Positions 4,908 to 24,873 of a stretch of 64,000 bases of DNA are shown one piece after another. The position numbers and the translations under genes were made by a program. Under the pieces are notes generated by a model, which was not told where the DNA came from, searched no databases, and saw nothing but the letters and a program-made list of their open reading frames with translations. Position 1 is the stretch's first letter. Each line of letters opens with the position of its first letter. The DNA comes from Perna viridis (taxonomy: Eukaryota), in assembly GCA_037379345.1 (NCBI GenBank), contig CM074517.1:8370001-8434000 (forward strand), written 5' to 3'.

Positions 4908-6450
4908 AGTACAAATACTCACATAATTGTGGACAATAAATGAGCATACGCACAAATTATGCACTAACAATGCATAGATCTAGGTTCAGTGTGTTTCTGG
5001 TACTACACAGAGGGGTTGTAATTTGGGTCGGAAGTGGTGAAACCTATAGAACATTTTCTTACAAATTATTTTCTCTTTGGAACAGACTGTCTAGAACAAA
5101 TCATCAAAGAATGTTTGCTTATTGAAAATATTAATATATTAGTGTAAACCTGAAAGCTGATAAGAATTGTGTAATAAAGATTATGTGTTCGGTAGTTTTG
5201 TTTTTACCCTTATAAATATAATTAACCTAGAACTTGTCAAGCCTTATGGGGCGTGTCCATCTGTCCATTTTTTCTCAGGGGATGTTTGTAACAAAACACA
5301 CAGGAGACTAATAAGTGTATCGTTGGCATGTCCATTATCCGTAAATCTATTAAACTCGTAGTTTTGGTTTGTTTTGTTAGGTTATTTGTTGTTTTTTTTG
5401 TGATGGTAATAGCAACGATACCATAATTATTACGATATTCATGTTTTGAAGACAAAAACAAGACTAAGAAATGAAAAAAAAGACAAATAACCACGAATAA
5501 CACAATTGAATTAAAAGGCTACACACAAAATTAAAAAAAAAAGTGTAGATTAGGTCCACTTGTATGCCCAATGTTCATATGCTGTCATAAGAAATTTAAA
5601 AGATAAAGACACTGTGAACTTATACCGTTGATTAGTGGCAACGTGCGTCGATTTTGACGCGACTTGTAAGTAGCCAAATGGTTTATTGCTTGTTTTTGTA
5701 TTAGTGCATGTGCTGAGATATCGTCCCGTGCAACCCCACTCATCAACCAAAATATTATTTTTAGCGACCTTATAGCTTTTATTAACGAATCCTTTTGTTG
5801 CTATAAATTCCATTTTTTTTTACGTTTTTTGATTTTCCGAACTTCTATCTACAAAATTAATGTATAAACATGTAGACCAATGACTCATGATGACAATGAT
5901 GTCAATACCCCTGGAGTATTATTGTTACAATTAAAATGATATTTTCTGCTTACTGTTATCACGTTTAATACTTCTGAAGTTCTTTTAATGACTTGTGGCG
6001 ATTTTTGTAGTCCAAAATTATAAAAAAAATGCAAAAACGGGATATTCGAATTTCCCGTATAATACGTATATAATCGACTCCACAAGTTATTTCAGTTTTA
6101 CATATGTCGTCCAAGGTGGACTTAGACGCTCAACACATTGAGTCACAAAAAACTTGGGGGTCACCCAGGTGTGCATGGTGGACTCTCCCAGCCCATGGAC
6201 TATATGTGTTTTCTTTACATTTTCTGTGAGGTTTATTCGTTATTTCTATTTTAGTCCATTTTGTCCTTTTTAAAACGTTTAAACGAGAGCCCCGTCTAGA
6301 ATTATTGTTTTGCTAAATGTCAAAGGCAGAGATATGGGAAAATATCAAGTAGTCTCAAGCAGATCAAAAATGAAGATTTTGTATGTAGCATTTTTTTGAA
6401 AGGACAATCTGTGTTAGACATGTGTTTTATTGCTTAACATCAATTTGTAG

Positions 6451-7069
6451 TTTTCAGAATCCAGTTGAAGTAAACCAAGGTGATCAAATCAATGTACGAT
6501 GTATATACTCAACAATGTCAAGGTCAACCAGAGTTCTATTTGGCAATTCAACATCCGACGAAATGTGCCTTGGTTTCATTACATACTTTCCAAAGGAAAA
6601 CTTAAAGGACCCTTACTGCATGAATTGGAAATCTGTATCAATGTGCCTACTCTGGAATAGGGATTCTGATATGAACGTTCAAGGCTGTAATATACAGCGG
6701 TTTTTTCAAGGAAAAGATTCAACAGCTAATGCAATCATTCAAAACATTGTTCAGTCATGTGACCCATATAAAACGTGCTCTGATTGGTGTAAATATTCTG
6801 TAAACGTTGCAAAGCAACATCCTTGTTTCAAGGGCGATGTTTTGGACTTTATAGGATTTAAAAAGAGAAATAATTTTCCAGATTTTCTCATTCCATTTAT
6901 TATATGTGATCACAGGAAGAGTATGAACTTTTCTGTTGAAATTATATTTAAAAATCCTTCCAAAACAACAGTAGAGCCGACTAACTGTTCTTCGAGTATT
7001 AAATATTATATGCTATCTACGGTCTTTCCACTGTTATTTATACTTTTTTTTAAGTCTAATATATACTAA
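6451..7069 (+). CDS. Terminal exon of DBH-like monooxygenase (MOXD1-like)
   Basis: Acceptor tttgtag|T at 6450/6451 completes AG|T (Ser) with the previous exon. Encodes FQNPVEVNQGDQINVRCIYST...FGNSTSDEMCLGFITYFP (GD..x.C.Y and DEMC CuM-Met motifs), a Cys-rich tail and a hydrophobic C-terminus. AATAAA overlaps the stop (7068-7073). Confidence 0.9.
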
Positions 7070-9097: not shown

Positions 9098-11639
9098 TAA
9101 AGGCTTCTTTCACTGAAAATACTGGGTAAAAAGGAAGTCTTGAGCTACTTGAAAAGTGTTCACATATCATGTACCCTGACGTTCCAATTGAACTATTTTC
9201 ATTTGGCGAAGTGTTTTTCTGTCGATTCTGTTTTGTTTTATGTTTTTTTTTTTTCGAATTTCTTATTTTGCTATATACGTGATAACCTTTCAATATCCTA
9301 GAATGTCAAGTTTTATAGTTTAAACATAGTTTGGCAGATTTTCCGTATAAGAGTAACATAATATCAAAAGTTAATAGTGAAATGGATAAATGAACTAATG
9401 CATGATGAACAAGTATCCGGCTCTCGAAAAACGTACATGTACAAATACTAAAAATACAGAGGAATTTGCGTTTATATTTATAGATTTAATTTACCATATA
9501 TTAGTATGACATTTATTCCATATGTTAATAATATAATTCATAAATTTGAATACCCATAAAGTATGTGAATGAAGAACACAGATAAAGCAATATTTTTGAA
9601 TGAAATTTCTTCCAAGCTAAATAAACCTAAACTACATACTGTATTGTCTTAACCTAAAGCTTTATCAAACTGTACGTTAAACTGCACAATAGTACAAGGA
9701 ACAACAAAACCCCAAAGAAATGGCATTTCCTCTATTTTCTAAGATAAAAAAAAAAGAAAAAAATTGAAACAGTGGTAAACTGTATTGATTTTTTAAAATT
9801 AATGCGGGATCTCATATTTTGTTTATTTTATCTTCTTAGAAGTTTTGGAAAATGTCCAAACTGAACATGATTGCAATAAAAATATTATGGTACCATTCTT
9901 TAAAACATTAATATACATAAACTTAGAAGGTCATCTTCAAGTGAAATACTAAAGACGTCCTTTTCATTTTGGTATCGACTTTTTTAAAGTTTAAAAGTTT
10001 CTTTTCTTGCATGATTAGGCAAACCCTTTGAAAGTTAGAATTTCTAACAGAACAGATTCCTTTTTTACAGAAATTGAAATTTAAAAAGCATGAAAAAAAC
10101 CTTTCTAAAATTATTTTAACGATATTTTCTGAATAACTATAACACTGATAGACCCAACATGTATTCAGGGATAGATACAACATAATTTCTTTGTCACATT
10201 TTCGGACATACAGACCTTAAGGAAATATAAATATCCGTTTGCTGCAGACAAATTCAAATAATATACTTCCATTAAATGTATGAGTCATAATATGTCTATT
10301 GTTCCTTTCTTAACTGTAATTTCTTGCTGTCAAAGACAAATGTAGGGAGTTATACCTGGAATATAATAGAAAAAAGGTGATATTAAAATTTTTAGCAGGT
10401 AAGCATATCCGCTGTAAAAAAACTTTAAACGAGGAAGGCTTCTTAGGTTGACTTTATTGAATGATTGGCATCTATTACACTAAAGTCCATATGATAAGTT
10501 TATGTCCGCCCGTTGATTCAATGTTCAAGGTACCAATAAGTGAAAATGTTTTGACGTATGTGTAATTAGAAATTAAGGACAAATTGATTTGAAGCAATTT
10601 CTCAGTATAATATTGAGTAAATTATGGAATGAATGAAGTGTAATGTACACGCCTATATCTATTTATAATATATACATATCTAAAGATAATCGACCAATGT
10701 TCATTAATACCTATTCTTTCAATGCATCAAACATAACTTCCTTCAACTTAGCTAATATCCTTTCTTATTTCATCAGGATTCATCTTGATTTTACGCCCCT
10801 GTTGACGTAAATAATGGGATAAACTTCTTTAATGAAGATGTCCATGATTTCTGCATAATTGGATTATCCAACGTTAGCATCGTTATTTGATTTGGTTCCT
10901 AATGAAAGATATTTTCCTTCTATATATCATTGCTTACTTTCCTGAATATCCTTCAGAGGGCAAAAGGTCACGATGGGATACTTAAAGGAACTTAATCCAA
11001 ATAAAAAAGCTAACAAACATTTGCTAAAACAAAACGAAAAAGAAAATATTTAAATAATATCACAATAATAATAAATAAACTTTGAAAGGAACCAATTCGT
11101 TTTTTAAATTGCTACCACTATTAATAGTAAATGACGCTTTGTGTTATTTATTTTGTCTCATAATTTTTAAATGCTATGACTGTTAATATCCGGCAAATTT
11201 AATATAACAAGAATGAATGACTGCAACATCAACAACCAATATGAATTGGAAATATATAATTAAATGCACCCTGTAGTAATATCAATATTGATAAAATAAA
11301 AATCATTTATCAATATTTTTCCCAAGGCGCATGATCCTTAAAGCATTATGAAAACGAACAAAACCATAAGGTATTTCAAATGCGGGGTTGGAGGAAAATT
11401 ATTGTATTGGACAACAAACTAATCCACATTTATTTTACTCTAACTGTGCGGAAATATTCTAGAGAGTATAATTAACAAAAGTAAAGGGAAAAACTCGTAA
11501 CGTGTACGATGACTTTTTCTCACTGTCATATTCAACTTAAAACGAATGTTCCTTCCAACGTTTTTTATTATCTGTCATCTCATAGAACTTGTTCTGCATG
11601 CTGAAAAAGTAAACCAAATGGTGTCTTGTTAATACTTAC

Positions 11640-11828
11640 ATATTTCAGATCTATAAAATGAATCAGAAACTCTTTCATAGGTGCGTTTACTGTGTTGATG
11701 CTCACAGGCCTTAACACAATCCTGGTACTCTCCTATCATTGACATCAAATTATCCCGCAGAGGTACAAGTCTGTCATATCGCGTTGATGCAGCTATTAAT
11801 GACTGTACAAATGCCTCAAATGTCATAT
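11640..11828 (-). CDS. Putative coding exon (phase 1-1) of an uncharacterised secreted protein
   Basis: Acceptor catttcag|AT at 11829/11828 and donor ATAT|gtaagt at 11640/11639. 189 nt open, encoding MTFEAFVQSLIAASTRYDRLVPLRDNLMSMIGEYQDCVKACEHQHSKRTYERVSDSFYRSEI. In frame with exon 23443-23623. Downstream exon unresolved; unspliced read-through stops at 11629. Confidence 0.55.
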
Positions 11829-13816
11829 CTGAAATGAATATTTCATGGAAATATCAGCATAAAAACATTGGCATGAGGCTTTCGTGTTGATGAATGGTTT
11901 TTCGAATATAACATTATAGGGAGAACTTTCTATTTCTTTAGTGCTAAGTATCTTAGTATTATCGAAGTGCGTATGAACTGTCCATATTGTTTTTTTCACA
12001 ACACAAACGGAATTCAGTACAAGTGTAATGGAGAAACAGAGACGGACTGAGTTCTGAGTCAAAAGTGATAGAAGTAACAAAAGAATCAATATTAAAACAA
12101 ACAAACGAACACGAACAGTTACAATTTATCCACTCACAAAAGTCGTATTTAGCCTATCAAGTTGGATTTAAACAATTCGCACACATTAGGTAACCGATAA
12201 TGAAGTTACGTCCCTAAGATACTTATTTTTAATCGCAGATATATCAAACTGTATACTCGTAACTGTATTATTATTGTTTTATCATGTTGTTCTTAAAATT
12301 CAAATGTTAATTAATACACAATTTTGCCGATAAAGTTAATTTTATCATTTTAAATTATAGTTCAAAACAGTTGAATTGTTAAGTTACATGATATGTTCTA
12401 ACAATACATTCTTTAAGACACGATAAATACATCCAATGTTTAATGTACAAAAGTTTTTCTTAATAAGCGTGTATACAAAAGCGATTTATACTTTATAACT
12501 TTACTTTGTGCTTTGTTTTAAAGAATGAACATTTCTGCAAGAATCTGATAATCAAAATAATAAATACGTTGAGAGAGAAAATTAAATAAGATGTATCACT
12601 AGAAAGTTCAAAACTTTCAATCTTCTGTGAAATATTTTTTTCTTTTTGTTACGAAGTACTTCATTTCGTGTTGAATAATAGCTTTCTTGCCAGTATTAAT
12701 GGTTCCTTCTACAAACTAAATTCTGTCCACTCATGCAGACCGAACATATTGTCAAATGATATTAAATGGCGTTTTTGTCGTTTAAATTAAAAGGAAAATA
12801 CTTTTGTCTGAAAGTTCTGAACGTCAGTTGAAAAATGAATTTGCTCATTTGTCAAAGACTATTTCTTTTCAAATATGTCTAATCTTATTTGACACAAGGG
12901 CGTTAATGTTTTTTTTTTGTGAACGTTTGAAATGTGTTTCAGAGTAAATTGAGTTATATGCAGTAGTCTGTTTCCCTTTATGGTTGTGTGTACATGATTA
13001 TAAACTTTTATTTTATCAAAAGAAATATTAAAAAGCATTCATATTTCCCCGATGTAAATAAAACTGATGAAATTGTCTATAAGAATGTGCGTGTGTGTGT
13101 TTCTGTCGTTTTAATCAGAATATCAAATTACATGTATGAAACTTTTGAGAACATACTCTTCACATCTCATTGAAATGAGTTACTTTTTTTATGACGATTC
13201 ATCTATTTTAACGATAAACATAACATAAGATCATTTTCAGGCTAAATTGTCAAACGATATGTCCAACAAGTGTTATGTATATCCTTATTCTTTTTGCCCA
13301 TCCTTATAACAATGACGTTACTTGTTCCCATCACCAAGAAACCCCCAAGATTTTAATACCGATCCTCCAATGAAAACAAATAACAAACTGGCCAAACAGA
13401 TGCCCCTAAATTACAATTATAAGTTCTAATTATTGTAGTCGGTGTGCATATCAGTATTAAACAGAAAACAAAGTCTACCAAGAAATGACATTTGAGGGAC
13501 TTCAAGACAGAGAAAAATCAATGATATTTCCATTTCACCGTTACTCGTTATCACTTATAATTTGTAGATTTCCTAAATGGCGGTCTACAAAGGAAAGTAT
13601 TGAAAGCTTAATAAATCTGTTTTATCAAGAGAAGCCATTTAATTTGGGTTTTTGTGACTAATGATCATTTTGGAGATGGTATTGTCATTTCAAGAGACTT
13701 CAGCAGTCACCCACTTAAGGTAGCACAGTGTAAATCACAAATGTATACGATGTTCATAATCAATGTATGAATTCCGTTATCTCGTTTGTTATGTATATCC
13801 TGTTTAGTAGTCTATA

Positions 13817-14022
13817 TGCTGTAAATTAAGAAATTACGGCGTGTATTCAATATTGCAAACTTGTGACCTTAATGGGAATTGCGAATTAAATTTTTGCAAT
13901 TACATGAAATGTGCAATATCTCTGAAAAAACTTTCCGTCATGTGACTTTTAATCATTGCAAATTGACGCCAGTTAAATATTTGGCAATGAATAAATATCA
14001 ATAATTTCTGAATTAACATAGC
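13817..14022. mobile_element. Decayed MITE (~200 bp) with imperfect terminal inverted repeats
   Basis: Left end tgctgtaaattaagaaatta versus reverse complement of right end tgctatgttaattcagaaatta. Confidence 0.4.
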
Positions 14023-14810
14023 ACTAAGAATTCCATATTCCGCGTTAAATTCATATTCATTAACAATGCATTTTGGATTTTTATGTACTTGATTCTAATG
14101 TTGCTAATGATAGGGAACTCTTTAAAACACGTGTCTAGCATGACGACATGTTTGTGTTTATGTATATCCATAAAGGTAATGTGTTAAAGATTGGCATGCA
14201 AAGAATCATTTACATCTGTCTTTTTATGTTTTAGACTGTCATTATTATAATTTGTAATTTAGGATAAAAAAGTTATCGGATGCAAATGAGTAATGTCCAA
14301 CCAAACTGTAAGTGATTCCATGATTCCAGAATTCTTACGTTTCTAAAACTGTATCCATGAAAGGTATTAAAGAGCTTATTGTAGGATACGAAAAATCATC
14401 GACTAGAACATTACAGATCTTAGATAGGGACCAATATTTTAAGACGGCAATACAAAACGATAAAGACACCAAACCACATACACAGAAACAAAACAAAAAT
14501 GAAGCAACACATGTCATCCAGAGAAGTTTATTATAAATTTATGTTTGTACCATTTTCCTTAAGGAGTTAGCACTTCATTGCAGGGGCTATAATTTGGAGT
14601 GTTTAGTTTTTGGTTCATTGCATGCCACAAAGGTGGCAAAATATGAACAACACATTGATATACTACACATGAGAAAAAGCAATCCTGTACAATCTAACGG
14701 ATCCTGAAGCACATTCAATCTACCAACTTTTAGTCGTGGTATGCTGAGAAAGATACATTGAGCCTGAAATACATTTCAATCTATCAATGTTACGTTGTGG
14801 AATGTTGAAG

Positions 14811-16709
14811 TTTGGTCAATAGTTTTCCTTTTACCACCGATTTCTCAGTGTAGGTCAAGATATGAGGCTGACTTCACAGTGTCTGTAGTATCCTTTATCT
14901 CAAGTTCTTTGGGGTAGATGCGATATATCAAATCCCCGAAATTAGGATTTTTAAATATAATACGTCATCTATATCGTCCTTGGTAGAGAGACCAAAAGTA
15001 GATAGCACAAATTTATGGTTTTCAACAATCTCTTCTTTGGACAGTGTGGTAGCAATATAGGTCTTATTACTGCTGTTATTTGCTAGGTCTACGTCTGATA
15101 ATAAACATTGGATGTAAAACGTTTTGCAGACAAAAACAATGTTTTTTGGGGCTTTGTCTGCTGGTACGACAACATATTTGTCATGTATAGTAGACAATGT
15201 TTTTGTTACATCGGGGTCTTTGAAAACTGATGTAACTTTGGCACTCATTGAACTATTTAAAACTTTCATTCGTTTCAACATTAAAGACTCCACAGCCTTT
15301 AACCACTCTGACAGAGAATTAATGTCTTCTTGTTCTTGTTTTATCCATTTTCTTGCATAGTCCTCGACGGCATCCATAAGAACTTTAAAGTTATAGTTCC
15401 TATTTTTGGAGTGTGATTCACGGTACTTGGGACCTTAAGATAGGATATTACGCAGAGATTCGTTTTCGATGATGGTTAAATCTCAGGTGGTTTAGCCTTG
15501 AAGTCCTCAATCTGGAGGTTCTGAAATAGCCTTTTATAATTGAAAATTTTGGATGCAATGGGTGAAGTATAGGAGTATGAAATAATTGGTATGGATTTGT
15601 CTTTGAAATTTCGGGGAATTTTGTTAGTGACGTTTTTGTGATGGAGGATGTTAGCCAAATTAATTGCATCTATACCTTTGTTGACAAACGGTAGTGGAAG
15701 AAATGATCGTTTTTCTTCATCTTGACTTTTCACACAAACTGGTTTAAAGAGTCTGTGGAAACCAATATCCAAAATGATGGCAACAAGTCCGTATAATGAT
15801 GAGGTGGGGGTCAGAAACAGGAGTGTAAAAACTTGTTTTGTAACGGGAGTGTAGTAGAGTGAGAGGTATAGAATAAAGTTTGGTTCTAATGTGATGAAGT
15901 CCAAGAGGTTTTTGTATGAAAGGAAGGAGTCCATCTTTGGAGACATCATGTAACTTAGGTGACGTATAGTGGTGATGTTTTTGACTCCTTTCCCGTCTTG
16001 GATTTTTGTCAAATAAATTCATCACGTTTATGCTATTGTTATATAGGCTTTAAAGGTTTCCTATACTTTTGATGTTGTCATTGCATCAGTAAGGTATTGC
16101 AGTACCTAGTCTGCATATCCAGTACTCCTCTCTTTCCCTGCGATAGTTTTTACTTAGAACGGGACTGTTCGTAGGATGGTAATTTTTTTTTCTAAAATAC
16201 GGACTTTCATAGAGAGGATTGAATGATCTTGTTGATTAAAGTGTTGATAAACTGTCAGTAATTAGGTGGTGTTAATTCCCGAACGATGACCGCACATTCT
16301 TTTGTTTAATCGTTCTTGCGTTTCTCCGACATATACTAAACCACATAAATTGTATTCTAATCCATATATTAAGTTTGTTGATTTGCAATTTAAGTCATCG
16401 TGACTTCTTGTATGGAAGGTTTTGTTTGTAACGGAACTGGAGAAGTAAGAGTCGGTTATAAGAATGTCGCATCTTTTGCAATTTTTAATTTCCACATTTT
16501 GATATGTTACAATGCGGTTCGTCAACGTTGTAGTCAAATATATCATTTAAAGTGATGTAACATGCTTTGATAATTTTGAAATAGTCAGAATTTTTGTACT
16601 GGAATATATCATCTGCAGACTGAACGTGTGATTGGGTACTTTTAGTTGAATTGGTCGGGGCACTTTCCATACCAGACGTGAGTGTGCTAAGATTCCCATC
16701 TGGGGACAT
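14811..16709 (-). mobile_element. Penelope-like retroelement with N-terminal GIY-YIG endonuclease (Naiad-type); decayed, RT core deleted
   Basis: 5'->3' on the - strand: Cys cluster (KCGN..NCKRC), GIY-YIG (NLIYGLEYNLCGLVYVGET.ERLNKRMCGHR ... REREEYWICRLGTAIPY*CND), linker ORF 15476..16012, PLE pre-RT motif YVVVPADKAPKNIVFVCK, then a direct jump to IDDVL...RIYPKELEIKDTTDTVKSASYLDL. Several frameshifts. Confidence 0.85.
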
Positions 16710-16714
16710 CAGTT

Positions 16715-18833
16715 AGCCGTAAATGAAGTCACATATGATCATGTTATATTAATTGGCGATTTTAATGAAAAACGAGAAAATGTAAACCCACACATGAAAC
16801 GTATTTGCACAACTTATAGCCTAGATCAATGATTACTGATCCAACAAATGTCACAGAAAATACATCGCCTGTTATTTATCTAATTGCTACTAGTAGTATC
16901 TATTTCGTACTTCCGCTGCGTAAAACAAATTGGGGACGGTTCGGAGGGGGAACTTTGGATGGTTGACGATTAATCTTAAGAAACTTATTCGTAAAAAGGA
17001 ACGTATACACTCCAAAACGCAACGTAGAAACCGTGATACCGATTGGACGAACTTCAGTCGTAAACCAAACTTGGTAACTTTAAAAATGCGAAAAGCCAAA
17101 CAGAGTCACCAAGATCAAATTATAGGTTAAAACGAAAAACTGTCAATGCAGACGATTTCAAACCGAATTACATGACGCTTATTCTCATCTCTTAAATCCT
17201 TCCATAGAAGAAATGATAAAGATCATTTTGCATTACAGAACCCGCAGTAGAAAATATACTCAAGAACCCTAACTTTGAGAAGGCATCCGGTCCCGACCTT
17301 ATTAGCCCGAGACTCTTGAAAGTCTTGAGAAACTATCGTCTTATTTTACTTTTCAGTATAATTTCAAAATGTTTAGAACGTTGTGTTTACATACACATTA
17401 ACACTTATTTGAGAGATAATCAAATTATACCGCAGGGATCCATACTTGGTCTTCTACCTTTTCTTGTTTTGATAACGACAACGTTATCGACGTCAATGCA
17501 TATATCAAACTATTTGCCGATGACGTTAGTCTATATTTTATAGAGAGTCTCCAGATATCGTAGCGCTTGCTTTGAATAGAGACATCGAAAAAATTCAACA
17601 ATGGGCTTTGCGATGGCTTGTTCGATTTGATCTTTAAAGACAGAACGATGCTGATATCATGTCAACCCGCCCGACAGGTTCACCCACCTCTACAGATGAA
17701 CAATTGTGATCTCCAGCACTTGTTTAGTCACAAACACCCAGGTGTTTTTTTTCTGATGATGACTCTTAGCATGACAATATTGAGTATATCGTTAAAAAAG
17801 CTTACACTAGGATCAATGTTCTTCGGCGGGTCTGATTGATTATCGATCGGTCTAAACTTGGGAAAATGTATATTACGTTTATTAGACCAATATTTGAATG
17901 CGGGGACATCGTATGGGCAAATGGTCTTCAAATTTCGATTATCAAGCTCGAAGGAGTCCAGATAGAAGAGATGCGTATCGTAACTGGTGACAGGAAATTA
18001 ACATCACTAGAAAATTTTTATCGTGAAACCAGATATGAAAAACTCGCCGATAGAAGGAAAAAAAACAACACAAACTCGTGATGATGTATGATAAAATGAA
18101 CGGTGATATCACCGAGGATTTAAGGACCCTGGTACAAATTCGCGGTCAGACTTCCATAGCCATATCCTACTGTTTACTATTAAGATGTTGAATGAACTCC
18201 CCGTAGCCGCTCGTAATGCGAGATCACTGAGCATATTCAAATCTTACATTAATGTATCTAATAATATCACACGCCATCGTACTGTTAAATTGGTAGTATA
18301 CGTGGTCAGATCTTGCCAGCTTGCATAAGAACAACAGTTCTCTCAACGAGCATCTATTCAGGCGTAACATGGTTACCAGTCCGAACTGTTTCTGTGGCCA
18401 AGTAGAGACAAGCAACCATTTCTTACTAGAATGCAACAAGTATTCCGGCGTCTCTATCCAAACTTTGAGATTTCAGGTTAATATTATTGGTCTTCTTAAA
18501 GGATGTGATGCTCTTACAACAGAACAAAATACTGAATTATTCTTAAAGATGTAATCTGACATTTTAAAAAGTGAACGATTAGTATATTGACACTAAAATT
18601 GTATGTTTTTTTTCTTTCTAATGCATTTCATCATATTCCCTCTGTTTTACCTACATGTCGATCTTCTTTCAAAATATTGTTTTTTTCTATTTCATTATTG
18701 CATAAACATATCTATTAAAGCAAGCTGATTCAATGTGTTGATATTTTATTTAGTTTCGAATCTTTATGGTGCATTACTCTTGTATTAATTATAATTGATG
18801 TATTTATTTGAAATAAAATATGTGTAAACTAAC
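16715..18833 (+). mobile_element. Decayed CR1/L2-group non-LTR retrotransposon (APE + RT remnants)
   Basis: HVILIGDFNE (APE), KASGPDLISPRLL, NYRLILLFSIISKCLER, PQGSILG, KLFADD, FIRPIFECGDIVW, C-terminal CFCGQVETSNHFLLEC. Tail aataaaatatgtgtaaact. Many stops and deletions. Confidence 0.85.
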
Positions 18834-20660
18834 TCTTTTATGAATTTCCCGAGATATTTTTCCAGGAATTATAGTTGCATCCTTACTTATAATAAGTACA
18901 TAAGCCATTTGAGAGTTAAGTTCAATAAGAAGTGTATTTATTGAAAATAATTATTTATTCTAATCCTAGCAGAAATTACAAAATGGCCCCAAAGTCACTC
19001 GTGTATATTAAAAGTTCCTTTATAATTATGCTTGCCTTTGAGCAAAGACATACAAATCAAGTATTACCGTGATTTATTACAATACTATGACTACTACATA
19101 TTTTTATACTCCCTTATCTGATAATCACTCCAGTTTAAACAATAAATCCCTTCTTCAGGAAGTATAGAATCCAGTTTATATTGAAAAGCAGAAAATATAT
19201 CATTGATCTAAAAGTAAACATTTCATTAATACTATGACTGAAAAAGAGAAAGTATTTATGAAACAATATGTGTGGATGAAAAGTTATTTTTGTTTATTAG
19301 TGAAGAAATGTAACCACGGATTTGTTGTAATGTACAAATGGAGACTGAAGGAAAAACATAAAATAACGTATATTAGACAGGCAAAAAGACACTAAATGCA
19401 GATGATAATAAAAATAATATCAACTTAAATATCATAGCTTCCTCCAACATGTATTATTTTTTCTTTATTATATACAAAAAATACTATCAGGTAGGACACA
19501 CCGTTAAAACCTTGTTTTATTGCTCACTTAGAAATATAAAAAGATAATTGTTCAAAAACAAAAGCATCCGGTATTATTGCAAACACAGAAAGTAGCTAAT
19601 GGTATTGATTATCTACAGTGTTGCATTGCATGAATATTTAACACGTATGACTTCAAATATTATACTTTCTTCTATTTGTTTGTAAGAAAGTAAATATAAG
19701 GTATCACGCCAATAACAAATCAAGCAAAAAATAAAAATTTATTTGAAGATTAAAAGAAATAAACGATGTAGTATAAACAAACTGAAGTCATAAAATAGAC
19801 ACCCTTCATTAGATATAAAACAGCATATTTGAGGACAATATCTTGGACAGAAATCGAAATGCATTTAGACATTATTATTGATAGACAAAAACTCCTGGCA
19901 ACAGCCACAAAAACAAAGTCAAAAGAAGTAACGTTCATATGTTCACATAAGAAACAGCAGCATCAAGGTAAAACCCGAAAAGTTTGAAGAACCGCAATTG
20001 TCCAGACTTGGTGAAGACATTAACTAATGGTTAACTTCCATATATTAGAAACTTAAACGAGAAGACCATATTATTGTGCAAGTCATAAATGTCGAAACTA
20101 TCGGGAGCTATCGGTAAAAATCAATAAAAGCTGGCTATGATCTTCTTTCAGTTAGGAGAGTTCTGCAAGATGGCTAACCACTTATATTTCAAGGATTTCA
20201 AACTTTGCATAACCTTGAGCATTTTATAAAAGCGCATTTTGCATTAAAGGTTATTTATTTTTGTTTACATGGGTATGATTTATCATAGAGCTCAACTTAA
20301 TGCAAAGGTGGTCTTTCCCTTTAAAGGTAAATATCTTCAAGAAGTTAGCTTCAAGTAATTTGAAAAAAAAAAAATCTACTTTACAATTTTAAAACGAAAA
20401 TGTGTAGTATAGGTTGCACTTGTTATCCTGATCATTTGATTTCAGCCTGTATAATCAAACTTATGAAAAAAGGTAAGAGCAAAAATTGGGTACCACTATT
20501 GTATTGTATTTTATCAAAATCGATTTAACAATCACATAAATCAGAAAATAATATAAAGTATAATAAACAATAATCGTAACAAAGTGTAGAAAAGAGTACT
20601 TAGTTGAACACAACAATTGGGATTTTATGGCATGATTGAAAACCGAAAGAAATCTAGTTC

Positions 20661-20822
20661 GTGCTCCCAGTGTTTAGTGCAGTCCGAGTCGCTCATTTAC
20701 TTGTATGTATTATTTTGGTTATTCTATGTTCTTTGTTGTGTGTGTCTGTTTTCTATATCTGGTCTTTGTTCCTGGAATACATTCTTTTGATTTCCGCTAG
20801 AATCTTGGTTCCCTTGATAACA
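20661..20822 (+). mobile_element. Penelope-like element (Naiad-type) 3' UTR fragment, 5'-truncated
   Basis: gctcccagtgtttagtgcagtccgagtcgctcattt...ttggttcccttgat matches the family 3' end. Confidence 0.8.
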
Positions 20823-23442
20823 TTAGTGCTTCCTATTGACTAGTAGTGCCTACATGTCGCCATACATTCGCTGTTTAATAGTAACTTAACATGGCAGATG
20901 AAATATTTACTAGACATATTTGTGGCATTGTAAAAAATCAAAGTTATTTTCATTAAGCGTAAGTGTAAAGGGTATGGGAATAATTGTGACTTGCCCTTTT
21001 CGTCCTTAGAATGATTTTTGAATTGCGACCGATTGTTTTTTGTTGTTACATTATTTCAAATGTTTATTCTCTTGTCTATACCGATATTAACTAAAATGTC
21101 ATGTATAGAAAGCAATAGTCTAATAAAAACTTTTAAAAATGATTACATAATATCTACAAATGTCGCAAGTATAACCAACAATTAATCCGCAAATTAAGAT
21201 TTTTTTCTTTAACTGCAATGAAAACATGCTTTTTTCTGATGCAAGCGTTTTAATTGTGTCCTTAAAAAGAAAACAATTGCCAGTAAGCAACACTGAAGGG
21301 GTTATCCATGCATATAACCAGAAAAAGACAATAGGCAATTAAAATGAAAATTGAAAATGAAACATTTTAAGAAAAACGTCTTCCATAAAAATCGGGAGTC
21401 AACTTTGGCGTTCTTGAACGGTAGGTTGTTTTACCTGCATATTGCAATGCTCGATATTTCTAGGACTCCCCTATTCAAAGTATATTGAATATTATTGCAA
21501 TTTAATTCACGAAACTCTTTTTAATGAACCATTGGGATGTCGAGTCTTGATGATGCTTTTTCATCGCTTTAATGTTAAGAACACATGTTAAACATAGTTT
21601 AATTGTAAAATTGTTAAGTAGACCCGCAACATTAAAGTTAGAAATACAATTTATTTCATTCAGCCTACAGCAAAGATAACTGTTGTATACAAGGTTGCAA
21701 TGGACACTGTAATGTGAAGCAAGTCATCACGCTGTTTTCACAAAGTTTCAACAACGTGCGCACGAAAAAAGTAGCACAAGACAAGCGTTTCTTATTTTTT
21801 TAAATAAAAACAAACCAGTTTTCTACCTTTCAGTTACTACTGAGTGTGCCTTGGTTCGTTTTGCCATACATATTCTACCCGTTTTGAAATCAAAATCTAT
21901 TTATTAATTCAAAATTACTTTATGACAGGGTTTAGAATTGGCAACGCGGCAGCCCATCTAAACTATCAAATACTTTTCACGAAAATCAGAAACACAGGTA
22001 CATGATTACATGTTGATGTGTGTATTAGTATGTGATCAAAAATACCACATCGAACATAAATGCGTATGGCCATCCCTCACTCAAGAAAATGAAGAGAAAG
22101 GAAACATCAGTCGAACAGCAAATTAAAAAAAACTCTTAACATATAAAAAACAATGCTTTAATTCTTGTCTGTTGTTAACTTCATGTTTTGTTCGTATAAT
22201 TTATTTTTTTTTTATATTTATTATTCTAGCGCTGAGTGTATTGATAAAATTTATATAGCTATTTCAATTAGAACAGAATAATCATTTACTCAAATTAACT
22301 ATATCACTCTTCGAGTAAAATAAACCGTATTCTGCAATACACTGGCCCATATTGAAAACTCTTAACTTATTATCTTCAAATGTGTTTCATTAACAAATAA
22401 ATAAATTCCACTCAAAGAATTAGATTGAAACTTTAGACTAAATACCCAAACAAATATGGTATCGAATAACCTTTGAATCCATGTATGAAAATAAGAGTAT
22501 TAATAGGAGTGCGAAATGTGCAATCATGATAAATTTGAATAAAAATGTCAACAAATGGTAAACAAAGTATTTGCAATCAGTATATGTAAACGTCAGCATC
22601 AATACACTCGCCAATATTAACTGTATATTAAAGAAACATTCTCTGTGATATTGTCTTTTTATCTACTTCTTGGACGGCTAGATATTTTGCGATATCATAT
22701 TATGGGACAATGTTATATGAACTAGTGGTTTTAAAAATTAGCTGCATTGTCGATAAAATCTTATTGGTCAATTGTGACGTTTCTTACATTGTTGTAACGG
22801 AACAAATGGTGACGTCATAGAAGGACGAACGCTTACATTTTCGCGATAGCTGATGTCGATTGTCACATATTCCACAGAACAATGGAGAAAAACGTTTTAT
22901 AACTCGTGAAATTTGAATAATGCAAAGTCATTTAATATCGCCGAGGCTCTTTTATTATGATGTTGAAATCAAATAACTTGCGTTGATATTTTTCGGTATT
23001 CAACTTTCATTTATTATGAAACCACGAACTTCTTTGCATAATTATGCATCAATTCAATGACAAAGCAAACTGTAGACGTAATCATTTTTGCAGTAACGGA
23101 TTCGTTTTACCATTTTTATTTTATTTTATAGTTTCAAAATTATGATAAGCGTTTAATAGTGTTAAAATAATTCTGTGGGTACTAAATATCGCGCATTTTG
23201 TCTACTGCGACATTGCCAAAATAATGCGAAAAATAATATGTTAACAATAACTTAGTAAATCTCTTTCAAAGTAATATTTGAATAAAGTAGTACACGAAAA
23301 AGACCAACGCAAATATTGAACTGAAATAAAAAGCAGCATGCATACACTGATGGGAAATATAAACAAAATGTGCACTTTTTTGTTATACATTTGATAAATT
23401 GAATACTCGATATATGACATCAAAATATATGTTTCAACTTAC

Positions 23443-23623
23443 TTTGTCGTCCAATTCGCTTGGACATTCGATGCCACAATGTTTTAAGTGTTATCAGATA
23501 TGGTGTAGCACTTTCGCATCGTTTTTCACACAATGTAGACTGTAAACTGTCAGTATTTCCGGAGCTAACGATAACAAAGACAATCAGTAGTGTGTACAGT
23601 GTTTTGTATTTAGATATGGTCAT
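23443..23623 (-). CDS. Putative first coding exon (signal peptide) of an uncharacterised secreted protein
   Basis: Acceptor tttcgtttcag|GTGATG (exon starts 23626, ATG at 23623) and donor CAAA|gtaagt at 23443/23442 (phase 1). Encodes MTISKYKTLYTLLIVFVIVSSGNTDSLQSTLCEKRCESATPYLITLKTLWHRMSKRIGRQ. A 64-nt gtaagt...cag intron at 23627-23690 implies a 5' UTR exon. Confidence 0.65.
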
Positions 23624-24138
23624 CACCTGAAACGAAAAGACGTACTGTAATAACATTTGTTTGCGATGTATAATTTTATTTTGCACTTACTTGGTAGATT
23701 AAAATAACGAACACTTATCTGCGAATATGTTCACTAAAAAAATAATGGAAATTTGCAACAGCGAAAATTGATATGATAAACATTTTATTTCATTTATTTG
23801 TTTCTATGTTGTTTTTTTAACTAGCATTGAAATGATATGGGTTGACCTCTGCTGTCGGGGCCTTTCAGAGATGACTCAAAGATGTGTTTACACTTACTGA
23901 AGACCTTTAAAAGTATTTACTATTTTGTATTTAGATTATGCTTTGGTGCTTTTGTTACGTTGCACCATATCTTTTCTTTTTCAATTTAAAATCTTTTCAT
24001 ATATAAAATCAAGGAAATCTATAGTAAATTAAAACTTTACAGGTTTAATTACAAAGTGGTTATATGTAAAACCAGAAAATGTATAAAAAGAAATACAATT
24101 TGGTTTACAAATTTGTATATCTAAATCATATTATTTTA

Positions 24139-24873
24139 TTTCATCCTGATTCAGTACACCTCATGGACATCAAGATTTTCATTTCATCCTGATTAAGTAC
24201 ACCTCATTTACATCTGATTCAGTACACCTCATGGACATCTGATTCAGTACACCTCATAGACATCTGATTCAGTACACCTCATGGACATCCCGATTCAGTA
24301 CACCTCATGGACATCCTGATTCAGTACACCTCATGGACATTCTGATTCAGTACACCTCATGGACATCTGATTCAGTACACCTCATGGACATCCTGATTCA
24401 GTACATCTCATGGACATCAAGATTTTCATTTCATCCTGTTTAAGTACACCTCATGGACATCAAGATTTTCATTTCATCCTGATTCAGTACACCTCGTGGA
24501 CATCCTGATTCAGTACACCTCATGGACATCTGATTCAGTACACCTCATGGACATCCTGATTCAGTACACCTAATGGACAACTGATTCAGTACACCTCATG
24601 GACATCCTGATTCAGTACACCTCATGGACATCCTTATTCAGTACACCTCATGGACATCCTGATTCAGTACACCTCATGGACATCCTGATTCAGTACACCT
24701 AATGGACATCCTTATTCAGTGCACCTCATGGACATTTGATTCAGTACACCTCATGGACATCCTGATTCAGTACACCTCATGGATATCTGATTCAGTGCAC
24801 CTAATGGACATCTGATTCAGTACACCTCATGGACATCTGATTCAGTACACCTCATGGACATCAAGATTTTCAT
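24139..24873. repeat. Minisatellite, ~26 copies of a 25-26-bp unit (cctgattcagtacacctcatggacat) with occasional 43-bp variants
   Basis: Directly visible head-to-tail array with very few substitutions and no unique spacers. Confidence 0.95.

Follow-up and report, generated by a model that had tools for sequence, protein, structure and literature searches.

What is encoded by two short open reading frames that lie 11.6 kb apart on the minus strand of a 64-kb stretch of the Perna viridis genome (the window, 64,000 nt, in which all coordinates are given unless stated)? A first-pass annotation made from the sequence alone had joined them into an orphan, secreted, prohormone-like protein with twin CxxxC motifs. 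We report that the locus is a transcribed gene with three spliced coding exons, and that its product belongs to a real, conserved family of prohormone-like secreted proteins in bivalve and gastropod molluscs that is apparently undescribed. The product is probably a secreted prohormone, cut at an invariant Lys-Arg pair (KR108-109) and releasing a predicted four-helix peptide of ~85 residues with two disulfides, whose role would be that of a hormone or neuropeptide acting through a receptor at the cell surface.

RNA sequencing data were placed on the window, four runs over 10800-24000 and a second placement over 9200-12200; the runs, coded X1-X3 and X15-X17, carry no tissue label. The in-phase junction proposed between the two reading frames, 23443^11828, was present in transcript-like contigs of X1 and X2, which come from two studies, and in one raw X17 read. 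In the placement on 9200-12200 it also appeared as loose ends in X1, X3 and five X16 reads; X15 gave no read spanning it in the placement on 10800-24000. Exon reads were all on one strand, as expected for a minus-strand mRNA.

A last exon that the first-pass annotation had missed was also found beyond 11640. Homologues end in an additional Cys-containing octapeptide, which prompted a search for a third coding exon, and a scan of the window for acceptors returned a single match to the homologues' last exon, at 10355. The junction 11640^10355 was seen in X1 and X3 contigs and in ten reads each of X15 and X16, with zero read depth over 10412-11623, inside the second intron. A stop reached by read-through after 11640, or a 39-nt mini-intron, was ruled out, as depth is zero over 11523-11623 and the reads join to 10355. 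Because of this join the product has 131 residues and two more Cys (124 and 130), and the original estimate of 123-126 residues was too short.

The 64-nt intron proposed for the 5' untranslated region (UTR) fared less well. Its joint, 23691^23626, was missing among the joints listed for the four runs over 10800-24000. The X1 and X2 contigs reach position 23627 and read G there; the upstream exon proposed earlier ends in A. A minor isoform may still use this intron, since raw-read depth there is below 1. The X1 contig carries 72 further letters, for which the pieces listed held no place or joint within 10800-24000. An upstream exon was sought with the N-termini of Mytilus isoforms in 23.6-64 kb and in 60 kb beyond, and none was convincing; the best candidate lay inside a long repeat-like reading frame and was not accepted.

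Table 1. Coordinates of the prohormone-like gene and its parts in the 64-kb window.
Feature	Coordinates	Strand	Description
Coding exon 1	23443..23626	-	ATG 23623-23621; ends in phase 1; GT/AG consensus sites; putative signal peptide; C32/C36 at 23530-23516; internal KR 55-56 at 23461-23456
Intron 1	11829..23442	-	11,614 nt, GT-AG (CT..AC on the + strand); contains transcribed repeat remnants
Coding exon 2	11640..11828	-	Phase 1 at both ends; GT/AG consensus sites; helices 3-4; C98/C102 at 11718-11704; invariant His104; invariant KR 108-109 at 11688-11683
Intron 2	10356..11639	-	1,284 nt, GT-AG; read joint recorded as 10352-11637 (shift +3)
Last exon, coding part	10330..10355	-	Completes Cys124; C-x5-C ring C124-C130; stop 10332-10330
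3' UTR	9500..10329 (end approximate)	-	AATAAA at 9827 and 9517; stranded depth 9503-10411 in X15/X16
Earlier-proposed 64-nt 5' UTR intron	23627..23690	-	Consensus sites present; splicing not seen

The precursor carries six Cys, at 32, 36, 98, 102, 124 and 130, with KR pairs at 34-35, 55-56 and 108-109 and an N-glycosylation sequon at 61 (precursor numbering). Its N-terminus is basic and then hydrophobic, as first read (Kyte-Doolittle 9-mer peak 3.5); homologues begin likewise, and this segment is a putative signal peptide. A phase-1 intron splits the mature region at residue 61. One Mytilus isoform is of equal length (131 residues, 109 of them identical), and alternative N-terminal extensions occur in isoforms of both Mytilus and oyster. 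The 22-residue tail after KR108-109 (10330-10355 plus 11640-11682) holds a C-x5-C ring, which most bivalves keep and which varies among gastropods; the tail may itself be a second peptide, of cyclic form.

We searched for homologues with the second exon and with alignments, and these searches returned 14, 40, 48 and 43 proteins; seven long multi-stretch rows in the 40-protein set looked like repeat artefacts and were left out. Members occur in mussels, ark shell, oysters, pearl oyster, scallops, Mya, Mercenaria, Mactra, Dreissena, Sinanodonta and Solemya among bivalves, and in limpets, abalone, Gigantopelta, Pomacea, Babylonia, Aplysia and pulmonates among gastropods. In oyster and Aplysia the family includes LOC105342826 and LOC101851294, respectively. 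The gene is therefore no orphan in the lineage-specific sense. No member was named outside Bivalvia and Gastropoda, where absence is not established because the sole full-library search used one exon. Every named member is annotated as uncharacterized, hypothetical or unnamed. The label 'ribonuclease HIII', given by JGI to one single-exon metagenome fragment, is supported by nothing else.

Alignments of 27 and later 37 proteins, picked for carrying both CxxxC motifs, share 13 invariant columns (C, R, C, L, W, F, F, Y, C, C, H, K, R; 27/27 and 37/37), and 45 distinct cores were counted in addition. Both CxxxC motifs, His104 and KR108-109 are kept in all 27, so the four core Cys and the second of the two KR sites noted at the outset stand. 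The first KR site is less constant: a dibasic pair at the position of KR55-56 is present in 24 of 27 rows and in 41 of 45 cores, and is lost from two Haliotis proteins, Gigantopelta and the second Argopecten paralogue, all of which keep the other invariant residues. The splice-created sequon exists in Perna viridis, but a sequon at the equivalent position was found in just 2 of the 27 proteins. Exactly two Cys occur in 17 of 27 tails. Ser precedes the second KR in 44 of 45 cores and Arg in the remaining one, and the span from the first Cys to that KR is 75-81 residues.

Conservation runs from the first Cys to the second KR and then drops abruptly; signal and tail are variable. Conservation confined between processing sites, as here, is the pattern of a mature peptide. 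Within the core, identity to the Perna protein is 70/78 in Mytilus, 55/78 in oyster and 39/78 in Aplysia. In a tree of 33 rows, heterodont bivalves, pteriomorphs and gastropods fall broadly apart, in rough accordance with mollusc taxonomy; 12 of its 30 branches are well supported, deep support is weak, and the long branches are Solemya and the second Argopecten paralogue. A search of the Perna viridis genome returned one locus, and no paralogue was found there with Argopecten P0044 as query, nor by a local profile over 154 kb. The taxonomy-like tree and the single locus together indicate slow, low-copy evolution. Argopecten has two members (P0044 and P0052), the divergent one without internal KR and tail Cys; two members are likewise present in Bradybaena and in Candidula.

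AlphaFold models of a Mytilus protein (P0004) and a clam-type protein (P0060) each contain four helices, in agreement with the helical structure first proposed. Mean predicted local distance difference test (pLDDT) scores are 76.9 and 75.4, and predicted template modelling (pTM) scores are 0.49 and 0.58, respectively. In both, the first CxxxC lies on the first helix and the second on the last, and the internal KR ends helix 2, ahead of a 6-residue loop; the ring of the tail folds into a small hairpin. No characterised family was matched. Pfam gave nothing near cut-off for either exon or for 27 members. A PDB sequence search returned 0 matches with one alignment and 5 chance matches at E ~0.7 with another, and Foldseek returned 0 at E<=0.001. 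VIA-align found no match with Z>=8; its two best (Z 5.6, root-mean-square deviation 4.1, 81 aligned; Z 5.0, deviation 5.6, 99 aligned) were both Nup133 complexes at background level, and such weak matches are no proof of a new fold. For the Aplysia core, the ESM Atlas matches listed (10 of 30) were mostly neuropeptide precursors (NPS, NMS, NMU, FARP, PYY, DH2, PDH), with scores of 0.79-0.84 that are at the level of a lead only.

Gene structure, transcription and conservation are what the data show; the following route to an active peptide is a proposal. The signal peptide would be removed near residue 22-24, and two disulfides, presumably C32-C102 and C36-C98, would link the first and last helices and so close the four-helix core. 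A convertase would then cut at KR108-109 and, once the basic residues were trimmed, leave an ...H-x-x-S end as a free acid, because the amide donor is missing. A further, optional cut at KR55-56, where helix 2 gives way to the loop, may yield two linked chains in most lineages, and in bivalves a 22-residue tail with its C-x5-C ring would be released. The receptor would be a G-protein-coupled receptor (GPCR) contacted by the invariant C-terminal C-E-H-x-x-S segment, likely the receptor-binding part.

Several observations count against a hormone or neuropeptide. Expression is low, with 22 (X15) and 45 (X16) reads over 3 kb in the unlabelled runs. The pTM values are modest, and disulfide pairing is not an output of the modelling. 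About one third of shuffled proteins reach an Atlas score of 0.8, and the Atlas gave no usable match for the Mytilus protein. The accession and motifs of the oyster orthologue were not found in the supplement to a survey of neuropeptides in the oyster visceral ganglion (PMC8398477), nor were the family motifs in that of a scallop ganglion survey. The prohormone-like character first assigned to the gene nevertheless holds in its essentials, the pattern of processing sites and Cys; its glycosylation site is not conserved, and the C-x5-C ring of the last exon had been missed.

The same processing sites could be read as those of an obligate two-chain molecule, in which both KR sites are cut and two disulfides hold together a 30-residue A chain (helices 1-2) and a 50-residue B chain (helices 3-4). 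The frequency of the internal dibasic site, its position at the end of helix 2 in both models and the placement of one CxxxC on either side of it argue for such a product. However, the proteins that have lost the site keep the other invariant residues, and its absence from 4 of 45 cores means that the internal cut cannot be required family-wide. We regard an obligate two-chain form as doubtful; the cleavage into linked chains suggested at first is optional at best, since 3 of the 27 rows lack the internal KR. A secreted protein outside the endocrine system, for example an immune cytokine, a pheromone released into the water or a defence peptide, seems to us unlikely. The core is basic, amphipathic and helical, small helical bundles are typical of cytokines, and no member turned up in the ganglion neuropeptide lists searched. 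A single locus with slow divergence, however, is unusual for species-specific pheromones or defence peptides, which tend to expand and to diverge fast. The Pfam match to myticin falls well short of the cut-off (E 0.035, 14.8 vs 28.5 bits), and no cytokine fold was prominent in the Foldseek and VIA-align searches, although this is weak evidence.

In a narrower form of the prohormone interpretation, vertebrate FAM237A/B (NPGL/NPGM) would have its protostome homologue in this family, which would supply the ligand of the orphan lophotrochozoan GPR83-type receptor and act in feeding and energy storage as a non-amidated, doubly disulfide-stapled peptide. We hold this homology to be tentative, and do not file the protein as FAM237. 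According to excerpts of the published work, FAM237A/NPGL and FAM237B/NPGM are vertebrate neurosecretory proteins and GPR83 agonists (10.1101/2022.09.27.509696, 10.1101/2023.05.04.539513, PMC4625114), and the GPR83 receptor type belongs to bilaterians and occurs in lophotrochozoans other than phoronids (PMC5818035, PMC11521371, PMC8557429). We built the comparison on residues printed in these papers and anchored it on the dibasic site, with D71 and C72 of FAM237 taken from NPGM. D97-C98-x5-H104-x3-K108-R109 of the Perna protein has the same register as the end of rat NPGM, whose C-terminal fragment reads D-C-x5-H-x3 up to the dibasic site in an excerpt of PMC4625114. FAM237 residues L24, W28, F39, L46, D71, C72 and H78 land on columns that are 89-100% identical in the mollusc family. 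A 16-position FAM237 pattern scored 26.2 vs -6.4 +/- 7.5, a score reached in 0 of 2000 permutations and in 0 of 600 under three gap settings; that of the 13 published residues of FAM237A was reached by 1-5 of 600 nulls. The gene also lies on C7, the contig that bears the Hox cluster, and human FAM237A and FAM237B are presumably on the HOXD- and HOXA-bearing chromosomes. This contig (49.7 of 723 Mb) carries eight same-strand Hox-type homeoboxes at 14877001-15499635 of C7 (14.88-15.50 Mb), 6.5 Mb from the window, which we take from their signatures to be lab, pb, Hox3, Dfd, Scr, Lox5 and two Lox-type genes.

Other comparisons speak against this homology. The lead was chosen post hoc from the C-terminal motif, which the 16-position pattern includes. 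Ten FAM237 core residues (W17, L24, W28, F39, W40, M43, L46, F58, L61, F65) put 7 on hydrophobic columns, 4 of them near-identical, and nulls reach that score in 2-20% of cases (597, 165 and 63 of 3000 under three nulls, and 17-30 of 600). W17, W40, L61, G79 and G81 have no match in the mollusc family. The amide-donor Gly is replaced by Ser (44/45) or Arg (1/45); in the excerpts at hand, that Gly is absolutely conserved in vertebrates and amidation is essential for FAM237A binding (10.1101/2022.09.27.509696, 10.1101/2023.05.04.539513). The mollusc core has four invariant Cys and FAM237 two, of which the last matches C98 in register. An intron interrupts the mature region here, whereas in mouse NPGL and NPGM knockouts, as described in an excerpt of PMC13538515, each mature peptide was deleted within one exon. 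FAM237 was not seen among the Atlas matches listed for the Aplysia core (10 of 30). CFAP69 was found on contig C11 and the one Obg-family gene found lies on C5, neither on C7; we assume both to be neighbours of FAM237B.

Returning to the prohormone itself, no description of the family was found in the literature by member accessions or motif strings, a search with figures, subscription journals and bioRxiv supplements outside its scope. Nothing on NPGL and NPGM in invertebrates, or on their evolution or orthologues, was found either. No family motif was found in the supplements of PMC5996578, PMC6425005, PMC10501145, PMC8557429 and PMC8398477, which are line-wrapped files, two of them incomplete. 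The looser string 'ACEH' occurs in eight places in survey supplements; the two inspected were unrelated. A term search of PMC12621736 gave no match. Long non-repetitive prohormones slip past motif-based neuropeptide surveys, and this family, undetected in the neuropeptide lists searched, spans farmed oysters, scallops and abalone as well as the models Aplysia and Lymnaea. It is a concrete ligand candidate for orphan mollusc GPCRs. If the link to FAM237 were true, GPR83, one of the bilaterian receptor types without a known invertebrate ligand, would gain a partner, and the FAM237-GPR83 system for feeding and fat storage would go back to the last common ancestor of bilaterians; such an ancient control of feeding and energy storage would matter for growth in aquaculture.

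The surroundings of the gene contain further features. An exon at 6389-7066 (+) matches Cu2_monoox_C (E 6.6e-14) and belongs to a dopamine-beta-hydroxylase-like monooxygenase convergent with the prohormone-like gene; opposite-strand reads at 9200-9500 abut the 3' UTR of the latter. Within intron 1, 14769-16973 and 20061-20942 are heavily transcribed repeat remnants with retroelement-like broken reading frames, and Pfam gave no match for two of these repeat reading frames. A short tandem-like repeat lies at ~24140-24300, upstream of the first coding exon, and an endonuclease/reverse-transcriptase remnant at 50180-50497 (+; PF14529, E 5.6e-4, under cut-off).

Among known systems, eclosion hormone (EH) is likewise a secreted, helical, disulfide-bonded peptide, and paired CxxxC motifs occur in it. 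The mollusc core has four Cys, its motifs 62 residues apart, and none of 27 members matches the Pfam EH family. According to an excerpt of PMC8398477, EH is present in oyster and has six Cys in the mature peptide; the six mature Cys, vs four here, ruled it out, and oyster clionin, from the same source, was rejected as an identity. Doppelganger-related peptides (DREPs) resemble the family as a class: excerpts of PMC10501145 describe secreted helical peptides of spiralians that are uncharacterised, carry one or two disulfides and are proposed to serve in signalling. Triangle DREP has 59-65 residues and two Cys and, in those excerpts, was not found in Aplysia data; CHH DREP has 71 residues, is acidic and has two disulfides, vs ~78 residues and a basic character for the Aplysia member. 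Identity with DREPs was rejected on size, Cys and charge, and the other Aplysia accessions given there differ. The haliotid growth-associated peptide (HGAP), another small, secreted, Cys-containing mollusc peptide and termed a neuropeptide, is restricted to abalone in an excerpt of PMC11108583; it was rejected on its 96 residues, its nine Cys and accessions unlike those of the family's Haliotis members.

The closest comparison is with FAM237. In excerpts of the primary papers, FAM237A is an amidated peptide with three helices, one disulfide and an essential H78-G79-L80 (10.1101/2022.09.27.509696, 10.1101/2023.05.04.539513, PMC5768754), made from a precursor with a signal, an 80-residue helical peptide, a dibasic site and a C-terminal propeptide, with His78 essential (10.1101/2022.09.27.509696). 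The mollusc family differs in its two CxxxC motifs, in Ser at the amidation Gly, in a usually present internal dibasic site, in the intron of the mature region and in four predicted helices vs three. It resembles FAM237 in its putative signal peptide, its predicted ~80-residue helical mature peptide with a long C-terminal helix, its dibasic site and its C-terminal propeptide. The two also share L-x3-W and F-x6-L spacing and the D-C-x5-H-x3-dibasic register, with a conserved His four residues ahead of the dibasic site (His104 in 27/27 members, H78 in FAM237A).

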